DNA of 64,000 bases from the NCBI GenBank assembly GCA_963753345.1, contig CAVWBU010000021.1, positions 160,001 through 224,000 on the forward strand, given 5' to 3'. Source of the DNA: an uncultured Fibrobacterota bacterium. Lineage in GTDB: Bacteria; Fibrobacterota; Chitinivibrionia; Chitinivibrionales; FEN-1185. The notes beneath the pieces are model-generated. The model was not told where the DNA came from. It did no database searches and worked only from the letters and a program-made list of their open reading frames with translations. Positions 17,740-61,287 of this stretch are shown here, one piece after another; the stretch's first letter is position 1; every line of letters starts with the position of its first letter. A program made the position numbers and the translations under genes.

Positions 17740-17872
17740 TCTCCGTGGGTGCCCCCACACAGGTGCCTGTTTCTGCAGCTGCTTCCACTTGGGGTGCACC
17801 CAGGAGGGGGTAGCGGAGGACACCGCAGGCCGAAGGCCGAGGAGGCCGCAGCGAGGGGGAAACTTCCCCCAC
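17740..17872 (-). repeat. Structured repeat family A, copy 1
   Basis: GGGGGAAGTTTCCCCCT...ACCCCCTCCTGGGTGCACCCC-N34-GGGGGCACCCAC on the minus strand, about 12 nt after the rfbD stop. Confidence 0.85.
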
Positions 17873-17883
17873 CTGAACTCTTT

Positions 17884-18747
17884 CTAGTCTTGTGACTTCT
17901 CTTGCTCCAAATAATCTTTCAACCCTATTTCCCATTGCGGCATGATATTCCGTCCCGGTTTTTTCAGCCGCTCATTTTCCAATACGCTATTGGCCGGCCT
18001 CGGAGCAGGCCTGGGGAATTCTGCCGTGGTGCAAGGCACAAGGTCAACCTGAATAGAGTACGCTTGCACGATTGCCTTTGCGAAATCAAACCACGAGCAC
18101 CGGCCTTCGTTGGTGCAGTGGTACAGGCCGTAAAGCTTTGTGTCAAGCATCGAAAGGATTTGTTTGCACACGTGCACGGTGTACGTCGGCGTCCCGACCT
18201 GGTCGTTTACCACCTTGATGGTCTCGCCGGTCCCCGCGCGCTTCCGCGCGAGATCGCGGATCGTCTTGAGAAAGTTGCTTCCGCGGGTGCCGTACAGCCA
18301 TGCGATGCGGAATATGAAATGGCGGTCGCACGTTTCCGCGAGCAGCGTTTCCCCGGCGTGCTTTGATTTTCCGTACACCGACAGCGGATTGGGCGCATCG
18401 GTTTCAACATAGGGGGATTTCTTGGTCCCGTCGAAAACGTAGTCGGTGCTGATGTGAACGACCGACGCGCCGCAGGCCGCGGCCGCTCTTCCGATGTTTC
18501 CCACGCCCTCCGCATTGACCGCAAATGCCTTTGCGGATTCATGCTCGCACAGGTCAACCGCGGTGAACGCGGCGCAATTGATAATGGTTTCGGGCAAACA
18601 CCGGTCCGCTGCGGCGCGGACGCTTTCGGGACTGGTGATGTCGATGTCGGGGAAATCAATCCCTGTCACGGCGTGGCCCGCCGCCGCCGCGGCCCGTATC
18701 ATGTCGCTGCCGAGCTGGCCCCGGTGGCCGACAACAAGGATTCTCAC
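17884..18747 (-). CDS. rfbD: dTDP-4-dehydrorhamnose reductase
   Basis: GHRGQLG, NCAAFTAVD, STDYVFDG, YGKSK, DQVGTPT and APRP. Confidence 0.96.
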   Translation of the reverse strand: MRILVVGHRGQLGSDMIRAAAAAGHAVTGIDFPDIDITSPESVRAAADRCLPETIINCAAFTAVDLCEHESAKAFAVNAEGVGNIGRAAAACGASVVHISTDYVFDGTKKSPYVETDAPNPLSVYGKSKHAGETLLAETCDRHFIFRIAWLYGTRGSNFLKTIRDLARKRAGTGETIKVVNDQVGTPTYTVHVCKQILSMLDTKLYGLYHCTNEGRCSWFDFAKAIVQAYSIQVDLVPCTTAEFPRPAPRPANSVLENERLKKPGRNIMPQWEIGLKDYLEQEKSQD

Positions 18748-18801
18748 GGGAAACAGTGCTCCGTTTCAAATGATCGCGATGCCCGGCGCGGGATGCGCCC
18801 G

Positions 18802-20382
18802 CTATCCCTTCTGCAGCAGCATTTTGCACTCGTCCAGATCGGGATCCAGCGACCCTTTGCCTTCGTGCCAGGTTCGCTTGACTGGAAGAGAGTACTGCCT
18901 GAACTTCCAATTCTGGACCGAGGCGAACTTTGCGTACTGGTCCATGAGCTCCGCGGCGGAAATGTTCGTCTGGATTACGGCAACGAGCTGCTGGGAGAGC
19001 AGAGCGGTGAGCACGATGTTCTTGGTGCTGAGCTGTTCGAAGAGCGCCTTAATCACCCGCAGCTGACGGTCCTTGAAGTCCTCGGCGGTTGAAATGTGCG
19101 GCCGGAGAAACAAACCGACCTGGTCGCCGGAGAGTTTCTGGACCCCTTTTTTCACCTTCAACTCCGCGGCGGCCTTTTCGTCGACATCGACCGTGACCCC
19201 ACCGAGCGTCGCGGCTATGCGGACCATATCGCTCTTTTCCAGCACCGCCTGCTTTGGAACGCGCGTGTTAAGGAGCTGTTCCGCGATCAGGCTCACGTAC
19301 AGGCCGCCTCCGTACAGGAAGGCCTGGCTGAGCGTTGCGCACCCCTGCACGAATTCCTGCACGTCAAGATCCGGAGGGAGATTTACGACCTGGAACGTTC
19401 CCGTCTCATAGTCCGCCGACGCAACGTAATAGACGCTCGGAATGCCGCAGAACACAAAGGTGAAGGGCGTGGCGCGCTGCATGACTTCGGATTTCGCTTT
19501 TGTCAAAACGGAAAAACGGGCGATCGGCCGCATGTCCTGGGTCACGGGCGAAACCTGGAAGGGCCTTCCGTCGCCGAACACCGACGCGCTCTGGCCGGAG
19601 ACCAGGTTGATCGCCTCGTTGCCTTTGACGCGCTCGACCAGGACCTGCCCGTCCATGGCGTTCACGTCGATTTCGTCCGGCTTGACCGCAACGGTGAAGT
19701 CCGCGCCGCTGCCCGCGACCGTGATGGTGACAAGCGACGTTGTGATCCTGAACAGCTCGCTTGCGGAACCGTACACGATCTTGTACCAGACGACGCCCGA
19801 TTTCTGGGTGGGCCAGGTGGTGGTCCTGCCGTCCTCAACCGATGCGACCTTGTCAAACGCTACTTCCGAAGCGCTGTCCAGGTCGATGCGGGAGAACGAG
19901 GAGGCCGACAGCTCGGCCTGCGACTTGTCCGCCGTTATCACGCGGTCGCCCTGGTGAATTTCCATGCCGCTTTCCAGGGGCCTGGTCTGGCCGCCCGAGG
20001 CGGTGACCGAAACGCCGCCGGTATGGAACTCCAGACGGATCCTGTCCGGCAATCTTTTCATGGTGACGGGGTTGGGCATCGTGCCGACCTGCAACTGCTG
20101 GTTGTTGGTGATCTGCCCGGCAAGATCGAACGCGGAAATGTCGGATGTCGGCCGGATGCCCGCGACCTTGAGAATCTCGAAGGGAGTGGTGCCTTGGGGG
20201 ACCCTGTACTCGCCCGGTCTCATCACGTTGCCGGTCACGCTGACGACCCAATTGTCGCCCGTGCCGGGACCGCTCCATCCGAGCGAAGGTGCAAGAATGG
20301 AAAACAGTCTCCACGCGATTCCTGCGGCAAGAAGACCATAGACCGACCAGACGGCAATCTGCTTCCGGGTTTTTCTTGTCAT
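18802..20382 (-). CDS. Membrane-anchored SLBB + FecR + LCP (LytR-CpsA-Psr)-like fusion protein
   Basis: TM helix; VSVTGNVMRPGEY (SLBB); GDRVIT..DGQVLV (FecR); LGGVTVDV..KKGVQKLSGDQ..RQ..IQTNIS (LCP). Confidence 0.75.
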   Translation of the reverse strand: MTRKTRKQIAVWSVYGLLAAGIAWRLFSILAPSLGWSGPGTGDNWVVSVTGNVMRPGEYRVPQGTTPFEILKVAGIRPTSDISAFDLAGQITNNQQLQVGTMPNPVTMKRLPDRIRLEFHTGGVSVTASGGQTRPLESGMEIHQGDRVITADKSQAELSASSFSRIDLDSASEVAFDKVASVEDGRTTTWPTQKSGVVWYKIVYGSASELFRITTSLVTITVAGSGADFTVAVKPDEIDVNAMDGQVLVERVKGNEAINLVSGQSASVFGDGRPFQVSPVTQDMRPIARFSVLTKAKSEVMQRATPFTFVFCGIPSVYYVASADYETGTFQVVNLPPDLDVQEFVQGCATLSQAFLYGGGLYVSLIAEQLLNTRVPKQAVLEKSDMVRIAATLGGVTVDVDEKAAAELKVKKGVQKLSGDQVGLFLRPHISTAEDFKDRQLRVIKALFEQLSTKNIVLTALLSQQLVAVIQTNISAAELMDQYAKFASVQNWKFRQYSLPVKRTWHEGKGSLDPDLDECKMLLQKG

Positions 20383-23615: not shown

Positions 23616-24454
23616 CCGTGCTTTCGCATGTCGTCGAGAATAAGTTCGATGTCTTCTCTGTCGATTTCCGTGAGTTCCTGGGCGAACCCGTAGTTGAGCG
23701 CGAGTTTGCAGAGGCGGTTTATTTCCCGGGGAACCCCGCCGGTGGACCTGAAAATCATTTCGAGCGCGCTGCCGGTGAATATGCCGAGATTGTCGAGCCC
23801 GGCAATCCGGAGCCGGTGCTGGACATACTTGGCCGTGTTGTTGTAATCGAGTGTGTTGAGATGGAACCGCAGGAAGATCCGCTGGTCCACCTGGCGCAGC
23901 GACCGTATCTTTTCCCGCAGCTCCGGCTGGCCCACGAAGAAAATGGTGAGGTAATTCTGGGTTTCCGACGTGATGTTGGTGAGGTTTTTCACTTCGTCAA
24001 GCACCTTATTGTCCATCTGCTGCGCTTCGTCGAAGATGAGGACCAGGTGGCGCTTCTGCTCGTACACCAGGGCTTCGAGTTGCTTCTTGAACATCGACAC
24101 GAGAAGGTATTTGTCGTCCCGCGGCGGCCGTGCCTCCGACGCGGGCCTTAAACCGCGGAACGGGGCCCGGTTGAGAATGTCGAAGAGGATGTCGAGAAAC
24201 GAGAAATCGGAGTTTTCGAACCCTATCACTTCGAAATGCTGGTTGGGCAGGGAACTTTCGAACACGCTCTTGGTGATGGTCTTGCCGCACCCGACTTCGC
24301 CCGTGAGCAGCCCCATGTTCATGTTGCGGTCGTTTACAACATACAGCATTCTGTCGAGGGCTTCCCGGTGGTCGTCGCTTTCGAAGAAAAAACGCGTATT
24401 GCAGACTTCTTCAAACGGTTTTTCCGACAGCTTCCAGAATTTCAAGTATCCCAT
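23612..24454 (-). CDS. ExeA/GspA-family AAA ATPase
   Basis: YLKFWKLSEKPF, GEVGCGKT, IFDEAQ, VGQPEL and GGVPREINRLC; start set at 24454 because the longer ORF runs through repeats. Confidence 0.9.
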   Translation of the reverse strand: MGYLKFWKLSEKPFEEVCNTRFFFESDDHREALDRMLYVVNDRNMNMGLLTGEVGCGKTITKSVFESSLPNQHFEVIGFENSDFSFLDILFDILNRAPFRGLRPASEARPPRDDKYLLVSMFKKQLEALVYEQKRHLVLIFDEAQQMDNKVLDEVKNLTNITSETQNYLTIFFVGQPELREKIRSLRQVDQRIFLRFHLNTLDYNNTAKYVQHRLRIAGLDNLGIFTGSALEMIFRSTGGVPREINRLCKLALNYGFAQELTEIDREDIELILDDMRKHG

Positions 24455-24488
24455 GATCAGATTATCCTTGTGAGAGAAAAGCGTTTGG

Positions 24489-24620
24489 TGGGGGAAGTGT
24501 CCCCCTGGCCCCAAGCCTCCTCGTCCCGCGGGACTGCGGGGTCTTGGGGCACACCCCCTCGTGGGTAGCCCCCTAGTAAGTTGATTTGCGAGAAAGAACC
24601 ACTTGCTGGGGGGCACCGAG
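24489..24620 (+). repeat. Structured repeat family A, copy 2, with a family D hairpin nested in its variable arm
   Basis: GGGGGAAGTGTCCCCCT-[gccccaag..cctcgtcccgcgggactgcgggg..cttggggc]-ACCCCCTCGTGGGTAGCCCCC-N34-GGGGGGCACC. Confidence 0.85.
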
Positions 24621-24701
24621 AAAGAGAGTTGGAAGTTGACAGTTGAACGTTGAAGGCTGGCGCAAGAAAAAACAGTTGACCGAATAGATTTCTCATGCCG
24701 C

Positions 24702-24837
24702 GCGTTAGGTGGACCGGAGGGTGAGCCAGAGCGAATTGCCGGCCGACCCTCGCCGCAGGCGACTGGGGCGGTCCGGCAACGAGGCCGAACGGCCGAGCCC
24801 GCGGGGAGACCGACCCCGCAAAGCGGGGGAACGCCCA
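24702..24837 (-). repeat. Structured repeat family C, copy 2 (136 nt)
   Basis: Minus strand reads GGGCGTT...CCTAACGC; colinear with 9305-9440 and 35858-36076. Confidence 0.75.
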
Positions 24838-24938
24838 ACTTCTTTTCTTGCGTTTTAGAAAAGTATTGCGCATGGATATTCAACCACCCGAAAGATACTT
24901 CCCTGCGGGTGCATACACCAAGAACGCGGCTTCGCGAC

Positions 24939-25640
24939 CTAGTGTTTGGAGAGCGAGTTTACGTAAATGAATATTTCAAGGGAGAGGACGATACAGGTAA
25001 GAACGGTCATGATAAGACCCCAGGGAACTTCGAGACTCTCGGGGACATACATGGCGTCGCCGGGGTACAGGATGTATTTCTTGCTGTCGCGTTTCCCTTC
25101 CGAGCCCCAGAGAATCTTGGAGTCGACGCGGAGGATTGTTCCATCGGCGCGGATGATCCGTATATTCTTCTCCTTGGACTTAATGGTCCCGCCGCACATG
25201 GCGATCGCTTTGAGCACGTCGATGGGCTCGTAGATTTGATACACGCCGGGCGAATGCACCGCGCCCATGACGTAAATCTTGTTCGCGAAATATTCTTCGA
25301 TGGAAACCGAGATGACCGGGCTGTTAACGTACGCGGACAGCTTACCCTCCATAATTTTGACAAGCTGCGCGCAGGTGAGCGACGCGACATCGATTTCGCC
25401 GATCACCGGATAATTGATCTTGCCGTCGGGACGGATCTTGTAGCGGACGGAAAACTCGGGATGTTCCACAACATTGATGCCGATGACGTCTCCGCGCTGC
25501 AGAACGTATTCTTCGGTCTGTCCGTAACAGAAGGAAAGGGCACCTAGCACAAACAGGGCGAACCACGTGCGCTTGGAAAATTGCTGCTGTTTGCCGACAG
25601 GGCATGTCCGCGACACTGGTGCTGCGCATTGAAATGGCAT
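24939..25640 (-). CDS. wza: Polysaccharide biosynthesis/export family protein (Poly_export + SLBB)
   Basis: YVLQRGDVI, IRPDGKINYPVIG, IYVMGAVHSPG and LYPGD; start approximate. Confidence 0.85.
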   Translation of the reverse strand: MPFQCAAPVSRTCPVGKQQQFSKRTWFALFVLGALSFCYGQTEEYVLQRGDVIGINVVEHPEFSVRYKIRPDGKINYPVIGEIDVASLTCAQLVKIMEGKLSAYVNSPVISVSIEEYFANKIYVMGAVHSPGVYQIYEPIDVLKAIAMCGGTIKSKEKNIRIIRADGTILRVDSKILWGSEGKRDSKKYILYPGDAMYVPESLEVPWGLIMTVLTCIVLSLEIFIYVNSLSKH

Positions 25641-25875
25641 TTCACCCTCTTGCATCCCAGTCCTGCAGTGTAAAGGAGAAGAGTGCTCCCACCGGCCGAA
25701 GAAATTGGCAGATAGCACAGATCCTCCGTTTAACGGCTCAGGCGTCAAACGGAAGAAACGAAAGTATAAATTATTTACAAGACTCAATTCAAGCGAAAAA
25801 TCGGAATTCTGCAATCGGGAGACAAAGGCAACGCCCAATTATTCAACAGGTTGCGTTTTGTTTGATAACGGCAGT

Positions 25876-26862
25876 CTATTTGCCGGCTGCCGGGGTATCG
25901 GCCGAGGAAGACGGAGAACCTCCCTGCACAGGCGACGAAAGCGCCGGCTCCGCGGGTTGTGAAAGGTTCTTTTTGATTTCGCCGGGCGAGGAAGGTGTTC
26001 CCATGCTGCCGCCGGCAGCGCCGAGAGAATCGGCCGGGACAGCCACCCGTTTCCGGGCCGGCAGCCTTCTTTTTCCCGCCAAAGGAGCAGGATTTCCGGC
26101 CGTCAGCCGCTCCGTGATGGTTTTCCCGACGGGCTTTTGCGCGGGGAGGCTGTCGCCGGCAACAGCCGGGCCGGCATGCACTGGGTGCTGGGAATCCGCC
26201 GGCGGCGCCGCGTTTTCAGATTTCACCACATGAGAATCAGGCGGATTGACAACAGGGCGCGAAGGGAAGAGCCGCCGGTTGATTGCCAAAGGCAGTTCTA
26301 CGCTGCTATGACGGCCGGCCTTCGAAACAATGACCGTCACGGAGGCGTGGGCGAATGTCATCCAGCAGTACAAAGCGGCCGCTGCCGCCGCGAGCGTGAT
26401 AAGGACCGTGGCGCCGCCTTTCAGCAGTGACCGTGTCTTGACAAAAGAGATAATCCTGCCGGCGACCGCTCCGCCGCCCGCCATCATCCTGCCGTAATTG
26501 CGCTGTAAGGCCAGGCGCACCTGCGATTCGAAATCGGACATGTCGGCCGCCGGGAACGCGTCGGGCGACGGCATGCCCTCTTTGCTTTCCCCGATGTTCA
26601 CCCCTCGCGGCAGGTGCCTTTTCATCTGGCCGTTGTACCATTCGTCAAATGAAACGTTCCCGGGTTTTCCTTTGAAAGCGCTGTGGCTCTTCTTGAAAAA
26701 CGGCACAAGAACTGTTGTTGCGTCGGCGTGACTCTTGCCCGCGTTCCTCAGGGAGACATACGCCGCACGCGCGCGGGAGCCAACAAGCGTGGCAAACGCG
26801 GTGGGATCGCCGCGCGCCGCCAGGTGGGCGAGAAGTTCCTCGGGAGTCTTGATGCCGGTCAT
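25876..26862 (-). CDS. Hypothetical membrane protein with degenerate ECF sigma region-2-like N-terminus
   Basis: EELLAHLAARGDPTAFATLV...FDEW; one TM helix; Pro-rich tail. Confidence 0.55.
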   Translation of the reverse strand: MTGIKTPEELLAHLAARGDPTAFATLVGSRARAAYVSLRNAGKSHADATTVLVPFFKKSHSAFKGKPGNVSFDEWYNGQMKRHLPRGVNIGESKEGMPSPDAFPAADMSDFESQVRLALQRNYGRMMAGGGAVAGRIISFVKTRSLLKGGATVLITLAAAAAALYCWMTFAHASVTVIVSKAGRHSSVELPLAINRRLFPSRPVVNPPDSHVVKSENAAPPADSQHPVHAGPAVAGDSLPAQKPVGKTITERLTAGNPAPLAGKRRLPARKRVAVPADSLGAAGGSMGTPSSPGEIKKNLSQPAEPALSSPVQGGSPSSSADTPAAGK

Positions 26863-26985
26863 GCAACCAAAATAAATCGTGTAGGTTCGCTTCAGCCGGT
26901 TTTCCTCTGTTGGAGCGATGGCCCAGCATGAGGTATTTTAGCAGTTGCAAACCTAGTGCACTTTTTAATGCGGGGAATTCCGTCG

Positions 26986-28105
26986 ATGCACAATCAAAAG
27001 GCACCTGTCGGCTGGAGCGATGCCGACATCGGATTCATGCAACTGGCCCTGTCTCTTGCCGATAAGGCAAAGGGCGAAACGTTTCCCAATCCTGCGGTGG
27101 GGGCCGTTGTCGTCAAGAAGGGGACCGTTGTCGGAAAAGGCGCGACCTCGCCGTACGGCGGGCCCCATGCCGAGCGCAATGCCCTGGCGCAGGCGGGCAG
27201 GAGAGCGCGTGGCGCAACAATGTATGTGACGCTCGAACCCTGCTGCCATTTCGGCAGGACCGCTCCCTGCACCACTGCGATCATCGATGCAGGCATACGC
27301 AGGGTGGTCGCGTCGGTCCGTGACCCCAACCCGCTTGTCAACGGAAAGGGCATGACCCTGCTCGCAGAAGCCGGAGCCGAGGTTTGCACCGGATTGCTTG
27401 AGCACGAGGCGCACCGGCTCAACGAAGACTTTTTCTTCTGGGTTACGCACCGGCGGCCGTGGGTGAGCGTCAAGCTCGCCCTGACGCTTGACGCCAGGAT
27501 CGCGGACGCGGCCGGCGATTCCCGCTGGATAACGTCGGTGCAATCGAGGGCGTTTGTTCACGACTTGCGGAGGAAACATGCGGCAATCGGCGTCGGCCGC
27601 ACAACGCTTGAAAAGGACGATCCGCGCCTTACCGTCCGCCACGGAAAAACCGGCAACCCGGCCCGCATCGTGTTTTCTTCAAGGGCGTCCGTTCCACCCA
27701 ACAGTTATTTTGTGAGAACTGCGGGAAAAAAGTCGCGGAGCATTCTCGTTGTGCGCGGCGGCCGAAACCGCTCGCGGCACATGCTTGACAACGGAGTGGA
27801 AGATCTGGCGCACCGCCGCAGCCGACGGGAAGGGAAGCCTTCGCGGGTTTCTGAAAACCGCGTACGAAGAGAACATTCCCTCAGTTCTCATCGAGGGCGG
27901 CGGCAGGCTTGCATCGGCCTTTGTGGAGAGCGGGCTTGCGAACAGGGTGTACCTGATGTTCGCGAACAAAATTCTGGGCGGCGGCGCGGAGGGGCTGGCA
28001 TTTGAGAGGCCGCTTGCGCTTTCCCGATGCATATACCTTGATAAAATGGAAATCTCAACATTCGGGGGCGACGTTGTGATCACCGGCGTCCCGGCGAGGA
28101 GATAG
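26986..28105 (+). CDS. ribD: Bifunctional riboflavin deaminase/reductase, one extra base near 27800
   Basis: PNPAVG, HAE, LEPCCH and KLALTLD; C-terminus (VLIEGGG) is in frame 27749..28105. Confidence 0.93.
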
Positions 28106-28108
28106 ATC

Positions 28109-28768
28109 GTGTTCACGGGGATAATCGAAACTACGGGAACGGTGCGCGAGATCCGGACCGACGGCCCGGCAATCAGGCTCGGGGTGTCGCCGGACATTGC
28201 CGGTTTTTCCGTTGCCCCCGGCGCGTCGGTCAACGTCGACGGCGCGTGCCTCACGCTGGAATCCTCGCGCGGGAATGTTTTGTATTTTACCGCGGTCCGG
28301 GAGACGCTGTCGCGCACCACGCTCGGGACCCTGCGCGTGGGCGGCTCGGTGAACCTGGAGCGCGCGCTCGCGCTTTCCGGCAGGCTCGACGGCCATTTCG
28401 TGCTCGGGCATGTTGACGCAGTGGGAACAATCGCGTCCGACACAAACGACGGGGTCGCGCTGGTGAGAACGGTGGGAATCCCCGGAGACATCGCAAGGTT
28501 CTGCGCGGAGAAAGGCTCGGTGGCGCTCGACGGCATCAGCCTCACCATCACCCGCGCCTCGGCGGCGGCAATCGACGTCTCGCTTGTGCCGTTTACCATA
28601 GAGAAAACCACCATGGCCCGCAAGCGGCCGGGCGACCGGTTGAACGTGGAGTGCGACGTGATCGCGCGCTACATTGCGAGGCTCGCCGAAGCGGGCCGGC
28701 CCGGCGCAACGGACGGCGGCGAAGCCAAGAGCACGCTGCTTGACACACTGGAGAGGTCGGGATTTTAA
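28109..28768 (+). CDS. ribE: Riboflavin synthase (alpha chain)
   Basis: [27 protein letters not shown] and DGISLT. Confidence 0.96.
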
Positions 28769-29982
28769 TGCCGTTTAAAAGCATAGAGGCCGCCATAGAA
28801 GACTTTAAAAACGGCGGCTTCGTCATCATCGTGGACGACGAGGACCGGGAAAACGAGGGCGACCTCGCGTTCGCGGCGCAGCTGTGCACGGCCGACAAGA
28901 TAAACTTTTTGGCAAGGTACGGCCGGGGGCTCATCTGCGTCACCATGGAAGGCAACCGGCTCGACGATCTTGGCATTCCCATGATGGTGTCGTGCAACAC
29001 CTCGCGGTTCGAGACCGCGTTCACCGACACCGTTGACGCACGCGAAGGAACCACCACCGGCATCTCCGCCGCCGACAGGTCGGTCACGGTGCTCAAGCTG
29101 GTGGACCCGGCGAGCAAGCCGTCGGATTTCGTACGTCCCGGCCACATGCTCCCGCTTCGCGCACGTGAAGGCGGCGTGCTGGTGCGCAGCGGCCAGACCG
29201 AGGCGTCGGTGGACCTCGCGCGTCTTGCGGGCCTCACGCCCGCGGGCGTGATCTGCGAGATCATGAACGAGGACGGCACCATGGCGCGCATGCCGCAGCT
29301 CAAGGAATTTTCCGCAAAGCACGGCATGAAAATAATCACGATAGCCGACCTCATCCGCTACCGCACCGCGCACGAGCGGTACGTTAAATGCACGGCGGCG
29401 GCAAAACTGCCCAGCCGCTACGGCGAGTTCGAGGTCAAGTGCTACGAAGACGCGCTCAATCAGGGTGTCCACGTAGTGCTGCAAAAAGGACCTGTGGACG
29501 CGGAATCGACGGTGCTGGTCCGGGTCCACTCGGAGTGCTTTACCGGTGATATTCTCAGATCGCTTCGGTGCGAGTGCGGCGATCAGCTGGAAAAATCCAT
29601 GGAGGAGATCGGCAAAAAGGGCGGCGTCATTCTGTACCTGCGCCAGGAAGGACGAGGCATAGGGCTTGTCAACAAGATCCGTGCTTATGCACTGCAGGAC
29701 AAGGGCCTCGACACGGTCGAGGCGAACGAGCAGCTCGGGTTCCCTGCCGACCGCAGGGACTACGGCATCGGCGCGCAGATCCTCGCGGACCTCGGCATAC
29801 GCAAGATCCGGCTCATGACGAACAACCCGAAGAAAATCGTGGGGCTTGCCGGGTACGGCATCGAGATCGTGGAGCGCGTCCCGATCGAGATTCCCCCTCG
29901 CAGGGAAAACGCAAGGTATCTCTCGACAAAAAAGGAAAAACTCGGACACCTTCTTGAAGGAGGAGCACAATGTCAACCGTAA
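28768..29982 (+). CDS. ribBA: Bifunctional DHBP synthase/GTP cyclohydrolase II
   Basis: [33 protein letters not shown] and MTNNP. Confidence 0.97.
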
Positions 29983-30434
29983 CGGAAGGACTGCTCAACG
30001 CGTCGGGACGGCGCTTCGCTATCGTAGCGAGCAGGTTCAACGAACTCATCGGCAAGAAACTGCTCGAAGGGGCCATTGACTGCCTCCTGCGGCACAACGG
30101 AACCCAGGAAAACATTTCGGTGGTGTGGGTGCCTGGAGCTTTTGAAATCCCCATCGTGGCAAAGAAGCTGGCCAAAACGAAGAAGTTCGATGCGGTGATC
30201 TGCCTGGGCGCCGTGATCCGCGGCAACACCCCGCATTTCGACTACATCGCCGCCGAAGTCTCCAAGGGAATAGCCGCCATCAGCCTTGAGTTGGAAGTGC
30301 CGGTGATTTTCGGGGTGCTCACCACCGACACCATCGAGCAGGCGGTGGAGCGGGCGGGCACCAAGAACGGCAACAGGGGATGGGACGCGGCCCTGTCGGC
30401 CATCGAAATGGCCGATCTCCTTAAGAAACTATAG
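29970..30434 (+). CDS. ribH: 6,7-dimethyl-8-ribityllumazine synthase
   Basis: [21 protein letters not shown] and FGVLT. Confidence 0.97.
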
Positions 30435-30440
30435 GAAGTT

Positions 30441-30582
<142 letters not shown>

Positions 30583-30610
30583 TTTTTTTTCAGCACGCCG
30601 GAATGGAACC

Positions 30611-31042
30611 ATGCAATCTTCCAGAAGAAAATCGCGCGAACTTGCCCTGCAGACGCTGTACGCATGCGACGTCGGCGACACGGTTGACTTCCGCAAGGTG
30701 CTCGCCGGCATCGTTGAGGACCAGAGCGGTCTTGACGGCGCGGACGAGTACGCCGCCGGGCTCGTGGAAAAAACGCTGCTGTACCGAAACGAGATCGACG
30801 CGCTGCTGAGCTCGCATGCCGCAAACTGGGACCTCAAACGCATGACCGCCATCGACCGCAACATCCTGCGCATGGCCGTGGCCGAGCTCAGGTCGACCCC
30901 CGACGTGCCGTTCAAAGTGGTGATCGACGAGGCGGTGGAGCTCGCCAAGAGGTACGGGACCGATGATTCCGGCAAGTTTGTGAACGGCGTGATAGATTCG
31001 ATTAGAAAAGAATTGCCGGCGGATAAGAGCGAGAGCATATAG
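30611..31042 (+). CDS. nusB: Transcription antitermination factor NusB
   Basis: RRKSRELALQTLY, IDRNILR, IDEAVELAK and FVNGVID; follows ribH. Confidence 0.96.
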   Translation: MQSSRRKSRELALQTLYACDVGDTVDFRKVLAGIVEDQSGLDGADEYAAGLVEKTLLYRNEIDALLSSHAANWDLKRMTAIDRNILRMAVAELRSTPDVPFKVVIDEAVELAKRYGTDDSGKFVNGVIDSIRKELPADKSESI

Positions 31043-31061
31043 TAGTTAAAAAATGTTCAAG

Positions 31062-31215
31062 TGGGGGAAGTTTCCCCCTCGCTCCGGCCCGGCGTGCTTC
31101 ACAAGCAATCATTCCACTATTCTTCGCACGCCGGTCCTCCGCTACCCCCTCCTGGGTAGCCCCCTTGACAAAGTAGTTGCTGAACCATACGCCCGTGTGG
31201 GGGCACCCACGAAGA
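31062..31215 (+). repeat. Structured repeat family A, copy 3
   Basis: GGGGGAAGTTTCCCCCT..ccggcgtgc/gcacgccgg arm..ACCCCCTCCTGGGTAGCCCCC-N34-GGGGGCACCCAC, about 20 nt after nusB. Confidence 0.88.
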
Positions 31216-31279
31216 ACAGTTGTAAGTTGACAGTTGGTGGTTGACGGTGACAGGAACGCCCAAGTCATTTTAAAGCTAC

Positions 31280-34204
31280 TTATAGCAGCGGTTCCCTCTT
31301 CAGCCTTACTCCCTCTTTTTCTGCTTTGTCAAAGGCGGCTGAACTCCCCAGCGCGGTGACGGCAAAGCGCGGGCTTGCAAGTACCTTTTGCGCGGCAACG
31401 GCCACGAGCGCGGGCGAGGCGGCGAGCACGCCGTCGCGCACACGCTGGCGGTACTCCCGCGTGCGGCCGTACAAAAGTGCCGCGGTCTCGGCGAACCCCT
31501 TTTCGTGCGGGGTGCGCGGCGCGTCGATCCTGCCGATGGTCCCGATGATGCTCTGGTCTATTGCGGCGGCGGGAAGTCCCGCGGCGGCCTCGGCGAGGCC
31601 CTTTTCAAAATGCGAAAACGTCGAGGCGAGGTTGGGGTCGCGGTACGAGGCGCAGGAAAAAATGGGATCGCCGCCCGAGACCATGGCCGCACCGCCGTAG
31701 GCGCCGCCTTCAACACGGACCTTGTCCCACAGATAGCCCGTGGAAAGGTTTCTTGACAAGAGGAGAAAAACGCCGGTCTTCTCCGGCGGAATCTTCCCGA
31801 GCGCCCAGGACTTTGCCGCGAAATTGACCGACGAGCTTATTTCGATTCCTGCCGCGCCGGTCCTCTCCTGAAAGTCAAATTCCTTCTTCGCCGCTTTTGC
31901 CTGCGGTAGGACCGAAACAACTGGCCCGATTGCCAAAGCAGCCTTTTCCGGGTCGTCGGCGGTGATTGAAAGCCTGCATCCCGCGGACGACACCACCGCC
32001 GAATGCACCTTCTTCATGGCGGCCGCAACGTCCTCGGGCGAGTCGCCGCGCACCAGGCCGTCAAGAAAGCGGAGCTGGGTGATGCCGCCGAGTATCTCGT
32101 CGATGCGGCTTGCGGCCGAGATGTTCGCCGATGCATGGAGCACCGCGAAAGTGTTGCCTCCGTCAATCACGGATGCGTTGAGGTTGTTCCGCATCTCGAG
32201 CAGCACGTCCTTCAGTTGCTTCGTGTTCGAGAAGTCGGGCTCCAGAAAAATGTCGCGCAGGATGCCGGCGGCTTCGTCGAAACGCGAGGCGAGCGACTTC
32301 ATGTGGACAAATGACAAGAAGACAAGGCCCCCCGCGCCGACCGCAGTGTCGCACATGAACGAGCCATGAATGCCGCCGGTGGAAAGCGACATGCGTTTTG
32401 CCATTTCCTCGTACGAAAGGCCTGCGGCGCCGCACCGGGTGAGCAGTTCAAGGTACAGGGGCAGGTACGGGAGGAGATCGGCCGGGACCGCGGTGCAGTT
32501 GAAGCTTATGTCGCAGTAGACGATGCCTGACGTAAAGATCGGGTGCAGGTACGCTTCCGCGCCGCCGACGCGGGCGAGGGTCGCCGGCACCTCGCGATTT
32601 TTCGGCGGCAGGTCCGATTTCACAAGTTTCGGCAGGGTGGCGAGCGCCTCGGGCGGCGAAGGCTTCTTCTGTCCCTCAATAAGCGTGCGCGTTTCCTCGA
32701 CGATGCGGAGCCTGTCGCCTTTTGTAAAGTGCGCGCTTAGCGACGCAGCCTGCTCCGTGGATTGCGTTTCGAGCCGTTTTCCCAGGGACGACGACGCGCG
32801 CACCGTGATGCGCAGCCGGTGCGGGTTGCGCACGAGCATTGCGCCGATCTTGGCGGCGAACCAGTCGCACCCCTTGTCCTTTTCCGCTCGCAGCGCCGCC
32901 AGCGGCTTTTCAAATGCGAGATGCGCGAGCGGGTCGCCGTTGTACAGCCACGACCGCAGGCACCGCTCGGCGAGCTGGAGGTTGTACGGAAACCTTCCCG
33001 CGTCGGCGACCTCGCGCAGGCGGAACTCGGTCTGGCGGAGCGCGCCTTCGAGCAGGCGTTCATCAATCGCGCCTGCCGCCTGCTGTTCGAGCGTGGAAAG
33101 CACGAGCGATTCTATTGCGTCGGCGCGCTCGGGCCTGCTTTTTCGGAGGCCCACGCAGAACATGCCGTGGATTAGTTCGTTGGAAAACCCGCAGATATCG
33201 TCGAGGTCCTCGCCGAGCCCGGAATCCACGAGCGCGCGCCTGAGCGGCCCGCTTTCGGTGCCCATGAGGTAGCGGTAGAGAACGCGGCCGAGCAGGGACG
33301 TTGCGGGATCGGCCGACATGCCGAATTTCCAGGCAAGGGCCACGGTGGCGAGTCCGTCGTCCTGTTCGGGCGAGGGCGCCTCGACCTCGGCGCGCCGGGG
33401 CGAGGCCCAGTCCGGCTGGGGAACGACCTCGGCGCGGTGCTGCAGCTTGTCAAAAGAGGCCAGATATTTTTCGTTGATAAACCGCAGGGTCTTTTCCGAG
33501 GGGATGTTGCCGTAGAGAATGATAAACGAATTTGACGGATGGTAAAACCGCGCGTGGAAGCTCTTGAACTGCTCGAACGTGAGGTCGGTGATGTGCTGCG
33601 GCTCGCCGCCGCTCTCGAAGGAATAGGACGTGTCGGGGAACAGCAGCCCCATGGCTTTCCGCTCCACATGGCTTGCGAAATCGGAGAAGACACCCTTCAT
33701 TTCGTTGTACACGATGCCCTTGATGCCCACAACCGCGTCCTCCGATTCCAGCTCGAAGTGCCATCCTTCCTGCCGGAACGTGGCGCTGGTGAGAAGCGGG
33801 TGGAACACCGCGTCACAGTACACGTTCACCAGGTTGAAGAAATCGGCCTCCACCTGGCTTGACACCGGGTACACGGTCTTGTCCGGGTAGGTTAGCGCGT
33901 TGAGGAACGTCTGGAGCGAGCCCTTTAAAAGCTCCTGGAACGGGTCCTTGAGGGGAAACGCGCGGGAGCCGCCGAGCACCGAGTGCTCGAGGATGTGCGG
34001 GACGCCCGTGCTGTCGGACACCGGCGTGCAGAAGGCGATGGAAAACAGGTTGTTCGGGTCGTCGTTGAAAAGGTGCAGCAGACGTGCCCGGGTTTTCTCA
34101 TGCGTAAATACAAAGGCCGTGGTGCGGAGCTCCGGCACGGGCTCCACGCGCTCGAGGAGAAAGCCGGCGCATCGGGCCGAGGGCGAAAGATCGTTCTGGT
34201 TCAT
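31280..34204 (-). CDS. Insulinase family (M16C, PreP-like) metallopeptidase
   Basis: HILEH, LNALTYPDKTVYP, GIVYNEMKG, VRVEGGAYG and SYRDP. Confidence 0.95.
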   Translation of the reverse strand: MNQNDLSPSARCAGFLLERVEPVPELRTTAFVFTHEKTRARLLHLFNDDPNNLFSIAFCTPVSDSTGVPHILEHSVLGGSRAFPLKDPFQELLKGSLQTFLNALTYPDKTVYPVSSQVEADFFNLVNVYCDAVFHPLLTSATFRQEGWHFELESEDAVVGIKGIVYNEMKGVFSDFASHVERKAMGLLFPDTSYSFESGGEPQHITDLTFEQFKSFHARFYHPSNSFIILYGNIPSEKTLRFINEKYLASFDKLQHRAEVVPQPDWASPRRAEVEAPSPEQDDGLATVALAWKFGMSADPATSLLGRVLYRYLMGTESGPLRRALVDSGLGEDLDDICGFSNELIHGMFCVGLRKSRPERADAIESLVLSTLEQQAAGAIDERLLEGALRQTEFRLREVADAGRFPYNLQLAERCLRSWLYNGDPLAHLAFEKPLAALRAEKDKGCDWFAAKIGAMLVRNPHRLRITVRASSSLGKRLETQSTEQAASLSAHFTKGDRLRIVEETRTLIEGQKKPSPPEALATLPKLVKSDLPPKNREVPATLARVGGAEAYLHPIFTSGIVYCDISFNCTAVPADLLPYLPLYLELLTRCGAAGLSYEEMAKRMSLSTGGIHGSFMCDTAVGAGGLVFLSFVHMKSLASRFDEAAGILRDIFLEPDFSNTKQLKDVLLEMRNNLNASVIDGGNTFAVLHASANISAASRIDEILGGITQLRFLDGLVRGDSPEDVAAAMKKVHSAVVSSAGCRLSITADDPEKAALAIGPVVSVLPQAKAAKKEFDFQERTGAAGIEISSSVNFAAKSWALGKIPPEKTGVFLLLSRNLSTGYLWDKVRVEGGAYGGAAMVSGGDPIFSCASYRDPNLASTFSHFEKGLAEAAAGLPAAAIDQSIIGTIGRIDAPRTPHEKGFAETAALLYGRTREYRQRVRDGVLAASPALVAVAAQKVLASPRFAVTALGSSAAFDKAEKEGVRLKREPLL

Positions 34205-34361
34205 GCAATGTCCTTGTGCAGAGATGTGTATGAAAAACCGTTGCTAAAATACACCATAGCTGCGGCGGGTTCGAGGGATTTGTGCGGGGGACAGAGTTCC
34301 GATTAATGTATATTGGTACGGAAAGTCAAGGCGGTCAGGCGTTCGTTGAAAGGACGGAACC

Positions 34362-35582: not shown

Positions 35583-35626
35583 TCGTTTTTATTACTTCTT
35601 GTTAGTCAATTAATATAATTATATAA

Positions 35627-35741
35627 GGGGGGAGGTATCCCCCTCGCTGCGGCCCTGCGGTCCTCCGCTACCCCCTCTTGGGTGACCGCCTTGATAAAGC
35701 AGCTGCAAAACCGTGCATTGTTGTGGCGGCACCCACGGAGA
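35627..35741 (+). repeat. Structured repeat family A, copy 4
   Basis: GGGGGAGGTATCCCCCT...ACCCCCTCTTGGGTGACCGCC-N34-GGCGGCACCCAC, about 45 nt after alaA. Confidence 0.88.
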
Positions 35742-35857
35742 GTAGTTGAGAAGGAAATCGTTGAAAAGTGGAAATTGCAGGGAAGAAGCTTAGCTGATTT
35801 ATCGCGAATGCCGATTGGCGTGAGGACGTAATTGACTGAATAGACTTCCGTTGCCGC

Positions 35858-36076
35858 GCGTTAGGTGGACTGGAGGGTGAGCTAAAGCGAATTGTCACTT
35901 CGTTCCCCAAGGTATGGTAATAGCGCTTCGCGCTTCATTCTTGTGTCTCTTGCCTTGTGCCGCCCGGATCATTCGATTGATGATTGAGAATCGTGTGACG
36001 CGGATTGTTCGGTCTACGCTGATTTCAAATCCGCAATCCGCATTCTACAATCTACAATTAGGAGGGGGAACGCCCA
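35858..36076 (-). repeat. Structured repeat family C, copy 3, interrupted by a family G unit (35894-35958) and heptamers
   Basis: gcgttaggtggactggagggtgagctaaagcgaattg and gggggaacgccca match both ends of copy 2. Confidence 0.7.
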
Positions 36077-36108
36077 ATCCCTTTTTGTCTATAAAGCGAA
36101 TCTCTTTA

Positions 36109-47457: not shown

Positions 47458-47461
47458 AGTT

Positions 47462-53624: not shown

Positions 53625-53752
53625 TACAACCGGTGCTCGTGGGTGCCGCCGCAACAATGCTTGGTCTCGCAGCTGCTTTGTCAAGGCGGCCACCCAGGAG
53701 GGGGTGCCGGAGAACGCCGAAGGCGCTCGCAGGCAGGGGGATACTTCCCCCA
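53625..53752 (-). repeat. Structured repeat family A, copy 5
   Basis: GGGGGAAGTATCCCCCT...ACCCCCTCCTGGGTGGCCGCC-N34-GGCGGCACCCAC, about 28 nt after the radical SAM stop. Confidence 0.88.
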
Positions 53753-53779
53753 CATACATACTCTTCTATCATCAACTAT

Positions 53780-55123
53780 TCAACTTTTCAACCCTTTTCT
53801 CACCGCATCCTTCACCTTCTGCGAATATTCCCGTGATTTTAAAATATTTTCCGCCTTCTGCCGGAACGAAGACAGCGATTCTTCCAGGTCGGCTCCGGCA
53901 AAAAACTCCTTCCACAGCCTTATAAACCCCTGCCGCAGTTTGTCCTCCGAAATAAGCTTCGGCCTGAACACGATGTTGGCGCAATTGTACTTTTTCCAGT
54001 CGCGCGGAAGGATGAACCGGCCTTCCGCCTCGATGCGCTTCCAGAACGGCGTTCCCGGAAAGGGCGTCGCGATGAAGAACTCGGCGGTTTTCACCTGCGC
54101 CTGCCTGCAGAAGTCAAGGATGGTGTCGAACTGGTCGTTCGCCCATGGTGTCGAACCCCACGCCGAACGACCCGAAGAACCGGATGCCGCGGTCTTCGAG
54201 GGCGGCGAGCGAGGTCGAGCGTACGCCGCCATACTGCCGGGTCGCGGCGATAGAACCGCACGCTCACCGGGTCGCTCGCGAACACCGTGTACATGCTCGC
54301 CGCGCCCGCCGAGGCCAGGGCGTCGAGGAACGCGGGATCGTTGTGCATCGCCGGCGAGCAGGACAGAAACATCCTCACGCCGAGCCCTTTGATGCGCTCG
54401 CATAAGTCAATCATGTACCTGGTGATGCGCGGCCGGTTGAGCATCACCATGTCGTCGGTGACGTAGAATTCCTTGCCCGCGAGGGCGGCGATTTCCGCGA
54501 CCACGGATTCAAGAGGCCGCAGGCGGATTTTCGTGTCCTGGTACAGCGGTATATTGCACCACTCGCACCCGAACGGGCAGCCGCGCGTGATCGACACGAG
54601 CGACGCGTGCCAGTCGTATTTGTCCTCAACGTCGAAAATGCCGGGCTTTGCGGATGCGATCTGCTCCGGCAGCGGTACGGTTTCCGCTTTGTATAGCTTT
54701 TTGAGAGAGCCGGCCGCAACATCGGCTAGGATCTCCGGCCATACCGTGTCGGCCTCGCCCACGCACACGGCTCGTGCAATGGAGCGCCGCCTCCTCGGGC
54801 ATAGTTGACGGATGCATGCCGCCGGCGATCACGGTTTTCCCGCGCCGCAGAAACTCGTCGCCGATCTCGTAGGCAAACCCCGCCTGCGGCGTGAAATAGC
54901 TTATGGCGACGACGTCGGCGTCGTCGCTAAAGTCAACCGGCTCGATGTTCTGGTCTATCACCCGGAAGGAGACGTCCGCCGGCAGGAGGTTGGCGAGAAT
55001 GGGAATGCCCAGCGCCGGCGGCATGCGGAACGCCCACGTGGCGGCAACCGCGGGCAGCTCCGCAAGCTCGGGATAGGTTTCGAGGAATTTTTCGAACCTG
55101 GGATAGACAAAGGTGACTTTCAT
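53780..55123 (-). CDS. B12-binding-domain radical SAM protein, interrupted by three single-base insertions (near 54770, 54201, 54138)
   Basis: Paralogue of 46177..47457; AGGMHPS, RGCPFGCEWC, FFGSFGVGFD and TPFPGT lie in successive frames. Confidence 0.88.
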
Positions 55124-56115: not shown

Positions 56116-56165
56116 GCAGGGGATGCACGAGGCTGGTCTGACATTGCAGAATGGTGCGGGCAATC

Positions 56166-56351
56166 ATGAAGAAATTCTCAAGTCGGACCCAATACCGTAT
56201 GCGATCCGCACAAAAGCGCCCATCTCTTAAAACCTTGTTACTTTCATTTTCCATCATTCTGCTCGTGCTTGCCATCACGTTCGCAAGAATGTTCCGGACA
56301 TTCCACTCATTCTCTCCGAAATCATCTGCAAGCCATCCTCGCTTCAGATAG
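56166..56351 (+). CDS. Small basic single-pass membrane protein
   Basis: 61 aa with one TM segment; fits between co-directional genes. Confidence 0.4.
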   Translation: MKKFSSRTQYRMRSAQKRPSLKTLLLSFSIILLVLAITFARMFRTFHSFSPKSSASHPRFR

Positions 56352-56452
56352 TGTTGCAGTACCGGTATTGAGGTTTTGGTTCTTGTCCAATGTTATATTT
56401 TTGTGATCATTTAACCATCAACTCATTCGTTCTTCAGAAGAGAGAGAACAGC

Positions 56453-56971: not shown

Positions 56972-57004
56972 CTTCATCCAACAACGGCGGCGGGAACAAG
57001 AACC

Positions 57005-58737: not shown

Positions 58738-58873
58738 ACCTTGGCAGAGGTTCCGGCGACTGTACTGTTCGGGAATGTGCCGGGAATGACCGCCTTCCAG
58801 AGCGGCATGATCGGGGAATCGTGAAATCTCCAGTTTCTGAAAAATGCCACCGTTAAATAAGCCTGATTAGACA

Positions 58874-58902
58874 TTGACAACCGGTGTTGGTGGCTATATA
58901 CT
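58874..58902 (+). promoter_or_regulatory. Near-consensus sigma70 promoter TTGACA-N17-TATACT
   Basis: -35 at 58874-58879 and -10 at 58897-58902. Confidence 0.7.
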
Positions 58903-59260
58903 ATTATGTGTTGGGAGCAGGAAAGCCAACATCCGGCCGAGTATCTGGAAAAAGAAAAGCCTGGGCAACCATTCGGGAGTAGATGCCAATCTCGGCAACC
59001 GATTGATAATACGTCGGTAACAAAGATAATCCGTCGGCATTTCGCTTTCGGGCAGGAAGAGGTTTTCTGTCAGAAAACGCTTTTTTCCTGCAGAGCTTGT
59101 TTTTTCTCGGAAAAAATCATATCTTTAGATTGTAGAACAGAAGGCAAGCGCAGAGGGCGAACGGGAAGTGAGGCTTCTGAAAGAAGCTGAGCCAATTCGA
59201 GGGCTGGAACTAGACGACCATTCACCATCATTTCAATAAATTTTACCCGAGGGAGGCGTT

Positions 59261-60382: not shown

Positions 60383-60394
60383 CGGGCATCCGGT

Positions 60395-60431
60395 ACAATG
60401 CCGTTCGCCCCGTTGGGGCGAACGGCATTGT
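60395..60431. terminator. Perfect 17-bp hairpin between convergent genes
   Basis: ACAATGCCGTTCGCCCC-GTT-GGGGCGAACGGCATTGT; no clear U-tract. Confidence 0.6.
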
Positions 60432-60446
60432 CATTGGTATCCCGTC

Positions 60447-61031
60447 CTACTTCCGACCCAACGTAATCAGCACGAACCTCGGCCACATTTTTTTCTGAAG
60501 CAGTGTCGAAAGCCCTGTTTCCTCAAACATCCTCCGTATCTGCTTCCCGCTTTTTGCATTCTCTCCCAGCAGATTGGCGAAAATCGCCGTGTGATCGGCA
60601 AGGCAGAACCTGCCTCCGGGTACAAGCACCCGCACGATTTCACCCAGTGCTTTTTGCTGGTCGGCCCAGTGATGGAAGGACATGCTGCTTACGGCAAGGT
60701 CCACGGACCTGTCCTCAACAGGAAGCGATTCGGCCATGCCGACCATAAAATCCGGCCGCTCGTCGAGCCGCCTTGCCTCGGCGATCATCCGCGGCGCAGG
60801 ATCGACGCCCGTCAACACCGCCTTGGGCCACCGCAGCGCGGCGGCGCGCAGGAACCTGCCGGTGCCGCAGCCCACGTCGAGAACGCGCCGCGGCGGACCC
60901 GAAGTGCTGTCGCAAACATCAAGCATTCTCGCCTGAATGGGCCCGAAGAACAGACGCTGCATAAAGGACCGGTCGTAGGTGGCGGCCCAGTTGTTGAAAC
61001 GGTTGATGTCGTGCTCGGATTGCATGGTCAT
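60447..61031 (-). CDS. Class I SAM-dependent methyltransferase (type 11)
   Basis: VLDVGCGTG, GVDP, AESLP, SFHHW and LVPGG. Confidence 0.9.
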   Translation of the reverse strand: MTMQSEHDINRFNNWAATYDRSFMQRLFFGPIQARMLDVCDSTSGPPRRVLDVGCGTGRFLRAAALRWPKAVLTGVDPAPRMIAEARRLDERPDFMVGMAESLPVEDRSVDLAVSSMSFHHWADQQKALGEIVRVLVPGGRFCLADHTAIFANLLGENAKSGKQIRRMFEETGLSTLLQKKMWPRFVLITLGRK

Positions 61032-61070
61032 GAAGATAAAGATCAAGAAAGGACAAAGTAACAAAGTGGC

Positions 61071-61135
61071 AAAGGGCAAACGACATAATGAAGGGTGCGC
61101 AGCACCATTACCAAACCCTTAAGGAACGTAGTGAC
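61071..61135 (+). repeat. Family G unit (65 nt)
   Basis: Nearly identical to 55351-55415. Confidence 0.9.
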
Positions 61136-61171
61136 AACGACACAAAGTAAACAAAGCGCCCGTACAATTAC

Positions 61172-61287
61172 TGCTCGTGGGTGCCCCCCAATCGAAGTTT
61201 GGTTCTCGCAAATCAACTTCCTTGGGGGCCACCCAAGAGGGGGTGACGGAGGACCGCAGGGCCGGAGGCAGGGGGATACTTCCCCCA
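61172..61287 (-). repeat. Structured repeat family A, copy 6
   Basis: GGGGGAAGTATCCCCCT...ACCCCCTCTTGGGTGGCCCCC-N34-GGGGGGCACCCAC, about 36 nt after the ABC permease stop. Confidence 0.88.

Follow-up and report, generated by a model that had tools for sequence, protein, structure and literature searches.

Family A copies in the window

The window analysed here is a stretch of 64,000 nucleotides (positions 160,001 to 224,000 of contig CAVWBU010000021.1, assembly GCA_963753345.1) that carries six copies of an intergenic structured element, called family A in this work. The genome that holds it (G000) is a metagenome-assembled genome of Fibrobacterota/Chitinivibrionales type, composed of 4.52 Mb in 55 contigs, with a G+C content of 55.9% and an estimated completeness of 94%. 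The six copies align over their whole length, and a profile built from the copies of the genome matches exactly six sites in the window. The positions, strands and common layout given in the original prediction were thus confirmed, both by reading and by alignment.

The element can be divided into different regions. These are a short hairpin called H1 (GGGGGA, a 4-nt loop and TCCCCC), an arm of variable length called H2, a joiner called J (ACCCCCTC), and a long hairpin called H3. The latter contains a TGGGTG/CACCCA stem, a single unpaired base and a CCSCC/GGSGG stem, and it encloses a segment that measures 34 or 35 nt in the window copies, which agrees with the 34 nt (plus or minus one) that had been counted by hand.

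Copy 4 (35627..35741, plus strand) serves as the exemplar. It is located in sense, 44 nt past the stop codon of a class I/II aminotransferase gene, belongs to H3 subfamily S1 and has a short H2 arm. Its H1 hairpin (35628..35643, +) shows the GGGGGA, 4-nt loop and TCCCCC arrangement and is followed by H2 (35644..35670, +), which carries conserved C·U, U·C and C·U mismatches at the base of the helix and an apical part that differs in length among copies. The joiner (35671..35678, +) is C-rich (CCCCCTC...) and appears to be parallel-complementary to the purine strand of H1. H3 (35679..35735, +) is formed by the TGGGTG/CACCCA stem, one bulged purine, a CCGCC/GGCGG stem and a 34-nt segment (35691-35724) that comprises an 8-nt bulge, an inner stem of 5 bp and a 16-nt loop bearing a TGCAAGA-type motif.

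Copy 1 (17740..17872, minus strand), which has an H3 of subfamily S3 (CACCCC arm) and a medium H2 arm, lies in sense inside the rmlD-rmlB junction, 11 nt past the rmlD stop codon. Copy 3 (31062..31215, +), whose long H2 arm ends in an AT-rich loop, is found in sense 19 nt past the nusB stop codon, in a convergent intergenic region. Copies 5 (53625..53752, -; S1) and 6 (61172..61287, -; S2) are also in sense, 27 nt past the stop codon of a DUF4070/radical-SAM open reading frame (ORF) and 35 nt past that of an ABC-2 permease gene, respectively. A Pfam-supported, co-oriented gene is therefore present 11-44 nt ahead of five of the six copies, in accordance with the sense placement after stop codons that had been claimed for five of them. 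The remaining one, copy 2 (24489..24620, +), belongs to S2, has a distinct long H2 arm and is antisense, its neighbours being a Poly_export gene and an AAA_22 ATPase gene, both on the minus strand. A plus-strand ORF (23970-24473) ends just before this copy; it has no Pfam match and overlaps the AAA ATPase gene.

Structure of the element

The outer stem of H3 had been predicted to covary (CCCCC/GGGGG versus CCGCC/GGCGG), and this is borne out genome-wide: among parsable copies, CCGCC is paired with GGCGG in 49 of 49 and CCCCC with GGGGG in 101 of 102. The constraint on the length of the enclosed segment also holds beyond the window. Among the 204 copies (out of 276 in the genome) that can be parsed by pattern, the segment measures 34, 35 and 36 nt in 61, 61 and 73 copies, respectively, with only nine outside this range.

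This segment, which had been described as variable, does vary between subfamilies but not between individual copies. Its sequences fall into three or four subfamilies (62 S1, 77 S2, 78 S3 and 59 others, as assigned by a rough classifier), which combine freely with short, medium and long H2 arms. The segment folds into a bulge, a covarying inner stem of 5-6 bp in which G·U pairs abound, and a loop that carries a conserved TTGCAAGA motif, a similar motif being kept in all subfamilies. In S1 (8-nt bulge, 5-bp stem, 16-nt loop) 95% of the cells in the stem are paired, and almost all of the variation there consists of transitions that switch between G·U and Watson-Crick pairs, rendering 130 wobble cells of 310 and a single A·C cell. 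Subfamily S2 has a different stem sequence at the same place, with 86% of cells paired. The excess of wobble pairs in the inner stem indicates that this fold is possible on the element strand alone, as expected for the structured element folding on one strand that had been proposed.

The suggestion that the 34-nt segment could be guide-like had to be abandoned. Since there are only a few subfamilies, whose members follow a subfamily consensus with an internal covarying stem and a conserved loop, the segment is a structured domain and not a guide or spacer. Alternative inner stems are weaker, both in S1 (GACAAAGCA/TGCATTGTT, 79% paired) and in S2 (AAGTT/AACTT, 72% paired). RNAalifold recovered little or nothing from 252 distinct H3 domains or from the separate subfamilies, because the subfamilies do not align column for column. 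The fold z-scores of the six window copies range from -1.8 to -3.9.

The H2 arm directly adjoins H1 on one side and J on the other. The helix at its base consists of the pairs U-A, C·U, G-C, C-G, U·C, x-y, C·U, G-C and G-C. The three pyrimidine-pyrimidine mismatches are retained in 163 of 165 copies, one of the G-C pairs exchanges with A-U (142 versus 19 of 165 parsable copies), and the x-y pair covaries (chi-square p = 6e-5). When the whole proposed structure was evaluated in 25 copies, 90.7% of the cells were paired, compared with 84.1% in shuffled and 50-57% in slid controls, and none of 500 shuffles reached the observed covariation. In a phylum-wide alignment of 43 copies, restricted to H1 and H2, 94.9% of the cells were paired (36-65% in slid controls) and both-side changes were present in 7 of 13 pairs (46 cells versus 9.8 ± 2.5 in shuffled alignments, with 0 of 500 as high); the fitting of this alignment to the model favours the structure, and the related genomes in it are not independent. 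Covariation with more copies, a test that the original prediction had called for, exceeds all shuffled and slid controls.

H1 shows a compensatory G-C to A-U change in Fibrobacter copies (see below). Its loop can carry an insertion, and about 20 copies have a second type of 5' half. The three local hairpins are predicted and covary, and the 5' and 3' ends of the element do not pair with each other.

The joiner is parallel-complementary, and not antiparallel-complementary, to the purine strand of H1, that is, it is a mirror of this strand and not its complement. Both parts change in step through three variants: GGGGGA in H1 co-occurs with CCCCCU in J, GGGGGAGA with CCCCUCU (20 copies versus 3 mixed), and GGGGAA with CCCCUU (5 of 6 versus 10 of 36 otherwise, Fisher p = 0.016). 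This is what a pyrimidine-motif triple helix (C+·G-C, U·A-U), with J in the major groove of H1, would require. We regard it as unlikely, nevertheless worth stating, that J adopts such a conformation and that family A represents a new class of structured RNA. If true, this clamp could confer exonuclease resistance or let the RNA grip RNA polymerase, and it would explain why the same core sequence is kept by hosts and phages.

Copy number and placement in the genome

Although the element was described as having six copies, which is correct for the window, an nhmmer search of G000 with the 3' module yields 276 copies, of which 273 are nearly full length. Elements are 115-190 nt long and all of them are intergenic, the sole copy inside a strong predicted gene being located in an over-extended ORF. 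They are dispersed over both strands with a median spacing of 6.2 kb (1st percentile, 830 nt). In four DNA runs, metagenome contigs end at the elements and show a 15-30-fold depth there, indicating that the raw data themselves contain these repeats and that assembly did not create them. The same runs gave no informative deletion joints, since the joints connect different copies.

Genes in G000 were called by a home-made procedure in which the longest ORFs were ranked by codon score (3119 genes, 78% coding). The element has the same orientation as its upstream gene in 177 copies and the opposite one in 86 (p = 2e-8), and copies in tandem gene contexts are sense in 111 cases versus antisense in 37 (p = 9e-10). 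This bias is present under both fork directions, as judged from local GC skew (75/34 with replication and 42/26 against it), indicating that the orientation of the element tracks transcription. H1 begins at a median of 29 nt past the stop codon, and in 116 of 147 copies it lies 5-60 nt from it; 66 copies are located at convergent gene ends. Sense placement after stop codons is a strong genome-wide bias, as the window had suggested, but it is not a rule.

A TTTT run within 25 nt past H3 is present in only 3 of 268 copies, and this near-absence indicates that the element is not itself an intrinsic (Rho-independent) terminator. No conserved promoter was found at a fixed distance, the upstream region showing a weak A-rich and then T-rich stretch. 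Inverted doublets are practically lacking, with just one opposite-strand pair of copies within 250 nt in G000. The same is true for terminal inverted repeats: in 224 copies, the first 24 nt and the reverse complement of the last 24 nt share 9.6 identical positions on average, versus 8.8 after shuffling.

Neighbouring modules

The spacers of G000 are mosaics of modules. Family A is usually followed by CACCCACGRAGAG and then by GTTGA repeats with a periodicity of 8 nt, the downstream consensus being purine-rich before GTTGA. At least one GTTGA is present within 80 nt downstream in 185 of the 255 copies that could be anchored. For instance, a GTTGA repeat tail follows copy 2 (24628..24656, +), and GTTGA(A/N) repeats of the same periodicity also occur at 35745-35775 (+) and 53765-53795 (-). 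At loci L132 and L135, from other families of the order, repeats of this kind read TCAAC on the strand of the element and flank it on both sides.

A second structured repeat, module B, measures about 180-260 nt, has no match in Rfam and is commonly located 3' of family A on the same strand. G000 contains 121 core motifs of this module, 74 of them within 300 nt downstream of a family A copy on the same strand, and its end is often placed just ahead of the ribosome-binding site of the next gene. After copy 2, module B occupies positions 24657..24839 (+), with core GTTAGGTGGAC... and end GGGGGAACGCCCAA. After copy 4 it extends over 35815..36078 (+) and carries an inserted third repeat, module C. 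This third repeat (...GGTATGGTAAT(A/G)G(C/T)GCT...) is found in the window once within B (35895-35965, +) and once after copy 6 (about 61090-61160, -), and about 15 core motifs are present genome-wide.

Presence in sister species and search for a mobilizing enzyme

A covariance model of family A, called R1, was used to search relatives and phage contigs. Among five other species of the same genus (G001-G005), R1 matches many copies in four, the listed counts reaching at least 74, and has no match in G003, a genome that is 99% complete. A DNA query combining A and B gives 34-59 matches in those four species and just two in G003, both of them gene matches. G003 has neither A nor B repeats, and four other species of the genus hold dozens to hundreds.

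The original prediction proposed a search for empty orthologous sites, and such sites were found at the rmlD-rmlB junction. This junction is filled with a family A copy in G000, G001 and G005 and empty in G002, G003 and G004; the two genes overlap in G003 and G004 and are separated by a 27-nt spacer in G002. The copies of G000 and G001 at this site share the same H2 arm and have different H3 subfamilies, and GTTGA repeats and module B are present in G001 only. The copy behind the aminotransferase gene is shared by G001 only, and behind nusB the G001 copy lies on the opposite strand. The filled and empty orthologous sites, together with the swapped modules, indicate that the family inserts, is lost and exchanges modules over the time of species divergence. 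No target-site duplication is visible at the one filled-versus-empty site compared (rmlD-rmlB), where strongly diverged flanks and uncertain element ends could hide a short one.

The possible links to an HUH enzyme or to an IS110 gene were not supported. G000 has no match for Y1 transposase/RAYT (PF01797), TnpB (PF07282) or reverse transcriptase (PF00078). Its single IS110 gene (PF01548) is placed at the end of contig C16, and no family A match was obtained at E<=1 in the 2.1-kb locus of this gene. Y1 genes are present in G002, G004 and G005, and the eight Y1/IS200 loci of these species contain no family A match. G002 has at least six identical IS200-type elements of about 0.5 kb with typical end hairpins (L157, L160, L163 and L164), which are unrelated to family A. 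A PDDEXK_2 nuclease was also considered as a partner and was discarded because it is absent from G000.

Distribution in the phylum and in phages

R1 matches 82 of the 151 genomes sampled from other families of the order and from the phylum. These include 50 of the 55 genomes of a family that carries the Fib_succ_major domain in the flanking genes, which corresponds to Fibrobacter. Three complete or near-complete Fibrobacter-type genomes contain 21, 15 and 11 copies. These copies are compact (about 90-130 nt) and are composed of H1, an H2 with the same mismatches, J, a short varying hairpin and the tail AACGCCCC. A candidate pseudoknot of the H type in this 3' hairpin (GCCAG/CUGGC) was noted by eye, with compensatory as well as mismatched cases, and is not claimed. 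Records with true copies are labelled by their depositors as Chitinivibrionales, Fibrobacterota or Fibrobacteres, and six control loci from other phyla gave no match. Matches to a loose pattern in unrelated high-GC genomes are not real; only the Chitinivibrionales and Fibrobacterota records held up.

The flanks of the Fibrobacter copies contain housekeeping genes mixed with mobile and defence genes. Around 10 of the 52 flanking ORFs belong to the latter type (for example PDDEXK_2, DDE_3, IstB, AbiEii, AbiH and Eco57I), and none of the 52 matches an integrase family. Flanks can match across genera, as is the case for the pairs of loci L171/L173, L165/L168 and L169/L175.

The core pattern is also present in seven contigs of IMG/VR (L207-L213), all of them confirmed by R1. 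These contigs, which are rich in A+T, carry genes for terminase, portal, protease and major head proteins, and the G+C-rich element is co-oriented with the neighbouring ORFs in all seven. They are related to each other, each has one copy at a similar place, and no tail genes were seen among the ORFs examined; they could be small phages or capsid-forming satellites.

A whole-copy query matched six records of Microviridae (about 4.8 kb) at 84-86% identity, the match being limited to the 5' half of the element. In one of them (L214, PQ006453.1, positions 1984-2043, minus strand), H1, H2 and J are intact and the element overlaps the last codons of a hypothetical coding sequence. It is unlikely that a microvirus genome of about 4.8 kb carries such an element idly, and these copies may point to a Fibrobacterota host. 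The six microviruses come from rodent faeces.

Comparison with known systems

Rfam 15 gave no match at gathering score over the whole window. For the region 24400-35800 (three copies, one A-B composite) there were only two unrelated low matches at E<=10, and 12 Fibrobacter-type loci gave none at E<=0.1. In the parts of the literature that could be consulted on intergenic repeats and non-coding RNA of Fibrobacterota, Chitinivibrionales and Fibrobacter, no such element is described; the matching passages of PMC11237797 concern Gemmatimonadota. Within Rfam 15 and that literature, family A appears to be, as was originally suggested, an undescribed family.

In proteobacteria and firmicutes, dispersed structured repeats are a familiar feature that shapes mRNA stability and genome plasticity. 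Family A resembles the REP/BIME sequences of enterobacteria and pseudomonads in having hundreds of intergenic copies whose presence differs between related species, and in forming stable imperfect hairpins, often just past stop codons, a position in which REP/BIME sequences are known to be co-transcribed. The mosaic build is also similar, since A, the GTTGA repeats and modules B and C combine like BIME parts. However, family A is 115-190 nt long and has three helices, whereas a REP is a hairpin of 20-40 nt, and the inverted doublets and the RAYT/Y1 gene of REP/REPIN-RAYT systems are lacking in G000. REP sequences are usually species-specific; in contrast, the core of family A is conserved in sequence across the phylum and is present in phages.

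Elements of the Correia/NEMIS, ERIC and RUP/BOX types measure 100-200 nt and insert between genes, as family A does; they fold in the transcript and can alter mRNA processing. Family A differs from them in the lack of terminal inverted repeats, which also separates it from miniature inverted-repeat transposable elements; its sequence relation to these types was examined through Rfam alone. Integron attC sites, such as the Vibrio VCRs, share with family A a folded single strand, bulged bases, a length-constrained central part and a sense position after a stop codon. However, the ends of family A do not pair with each other, its 5' end being a local hairpin, and its copies are dispersed on both strands after housekeeping genes and not arranged in one-directional arrays. 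Elements derived from IS200/IS605 (PATE, omega-RNA scaffolds) would be accompanied by TnpA/TnpB, and retroelement-derived repeats (retron, group II intron, SINE-like) by a reverse transcriptase, all of them absent from G000. Nor does family A adjoin the one DEDD recombinase gene of G000, as IS110/bridge-RNA elements would.

The HK022 put and EAR sequences are processive antitermination RNAs of about 70-130 nt that act in cis and are conserved in sequence and fold. Like them, family A would be a structured RNA within transcription units of phages and polysaccharide operons. These RNAs, in turn, are found as one or two copies per genome or operon, versus hundreds for family A.

Possible function of family A

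Our preferred reading, to which we assign a probability of about 45%, is that family A is a structured, strand-specific element that acts in cis as RNA within mRNA and has expanded in one genus as REP/BIME sequences do. The element would be transcribed within the mRNA of the preceding gene, as a 3' untranslated region or an intercistronic spacer, and its very stable three-helix fold could be recognised by a putative conserved host factor, serving as a cis signal. Its likeliest role may be to protect or delimit the message of the preceding gene, as a barrier or a processing point, in the way of REP/BIME in enterobacteria. The hundreds of copies in one genus would have arisen by insertion into intergenic spacers and by module exchange between copies. 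An RNA role in cis is favoured because of the link to transcription, the tight spacing after stop codons, the insertion in operons and the sense orientation in the tailed-phage contigs.

Different observations weigh against this reading. One copy in three, copy 2 of the window among them, runs antisense to its upstream gene. In Fibrobacter-type genomes no orientation bias was seen (14 same versus 16 opposite of 30, with crude ORF calls), and in the six microviruses the element is opposite in strand to all annotated genes. A search with a 1.9-kb stretch around copy 1 listed no RNA run, and transcription of the element is deduced from position only. These four points keep our confidence under one half. 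In addition, the placement statistics depend on the home-made ORF and codon-score gene calls, the two strands are not told apart by folding energy (mean z about -2.7 for the element strand and about -2.2 for the other), and hairpins that tolerate G·T pairs also suit single-stranded DNA (ssDNA). Finally, a generic hairpin barrier needs no sequence conservation across a phylum, so that the stabiliser role may be incomplete or wrong.

The folded strand could instead act as ssDNA, being the substrate of a transposase or recombinase of the HUH, tyrosine or Xer type, or a priming or origin signal; family A would then be a non-autonomous mobile element and its position after genes a target preference. 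We consider both parts of this explanation unlikely, although the insertion polymorphism between sister species, the burst of copies in one genus and the modules swapped between orthologous copies are what it would predict, and G·T-tolerant hairpins fit ssDNA and RNA equally. The 5' domain in six ssDNA microviruses and seven phage-like contigs, together with the mobile and defence ORFs beside Fibrobacter-type copies, also points in this direction. However, the enzymes that could mobilise such a strand (Y1 transposase/RAYT, TnpB and reverse transcriptase) are missing from a genome that is 94% complete, the IS110 and IS200 loci are devoid of copies, neither terminal inverted repeats nor inverted doublets were detected, and orientation tracks transcription and not replication. 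The lack of integrase matches in the Fibrobacter flanks is a further argument against it. The mobile and defence neighbours, frequent in Fibrobacter-type genomes, would also fit a set of separate small-RNA genes or gene-like integration targets. In that case the compact version would represent the true gene, and the window copies would be products of a degenerate expansion. The 11-21 dispersed compact copies without orientation bias, the sharing of the same locus by different genera and the whole copies in phage genomes, like attP-type copies of RNA genes, agree with this proposal, which is nevertheless quite improbable: there is no conserved promoter at a fixed distance and no integrase adjoins any copy examined. 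Since most copies in G000 are about 29 nt past a stop codon in sense, read-through transcription fits better than own promoters.

Even with transcription accepted, the RNA could bind RNA polymerase or a termination factor and alter elongation, either by antitermination, in the manner of put and EAR, or in the reverse sense. Such control would explain the place of the element inside operons and phage transcription units, such as the sense copies at rmlD-rmlB and at other polysaccharide genes in the window and the seven phage-contig copies, one of which lies directly after a repressor-like regulator gene. The absence of a T-run after the fold, so that the element is not an intrinsic terminator, and the conservation of the core at sequence level, which argues for a conserved housekeeping partner, are consistent with it. 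However, of the 276 copies, the 66 at convergent gene ends have nothing downstream for read-through, and one third are antisense. The resemblance to put and EAR is a possible analogy, and we hold elongation control to be very improbable.

Whichever its function, family A is a real and ancient element, unusual for a three-helix core with conserved non-canonical pairs whose sequence is kept across a whole phylum. Its copy number rises from around twelve in Fibrobacter to hundreds in a single uncultured genus, one sister species of which has none, and the element is present in tailed-phage-like contigs and 4.8-kb microviruses. A core that bound a conserved host factor, or that formed a triple helix, would constitute a new RNA motif and possibly a new way by which phages borrow a host signal. 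Fibrobacter succinogenes can be cultivated, so the function is directly testable. On the practical side, short-read assemblies of these genomes break at the element, and their annotation would gain from a model of it.

Other features of the window

A separate perfect hairpin (CCCCTCTCCCC / GGGAGAGGGG type), which does not belong to family A, is present downstream of copy 1 in the rmlD-rmlB spacer (17640-17690, -). In the region ahead of copy 5 (53780-54768, -), two ORFs in different frames overlap, one matching Radical_SAM (54091-54768) and the other weakly similar to DUF4070 (53780-54403); they look like a single B12-type radical SAM gene affected by a frameshift or a sequencing error.

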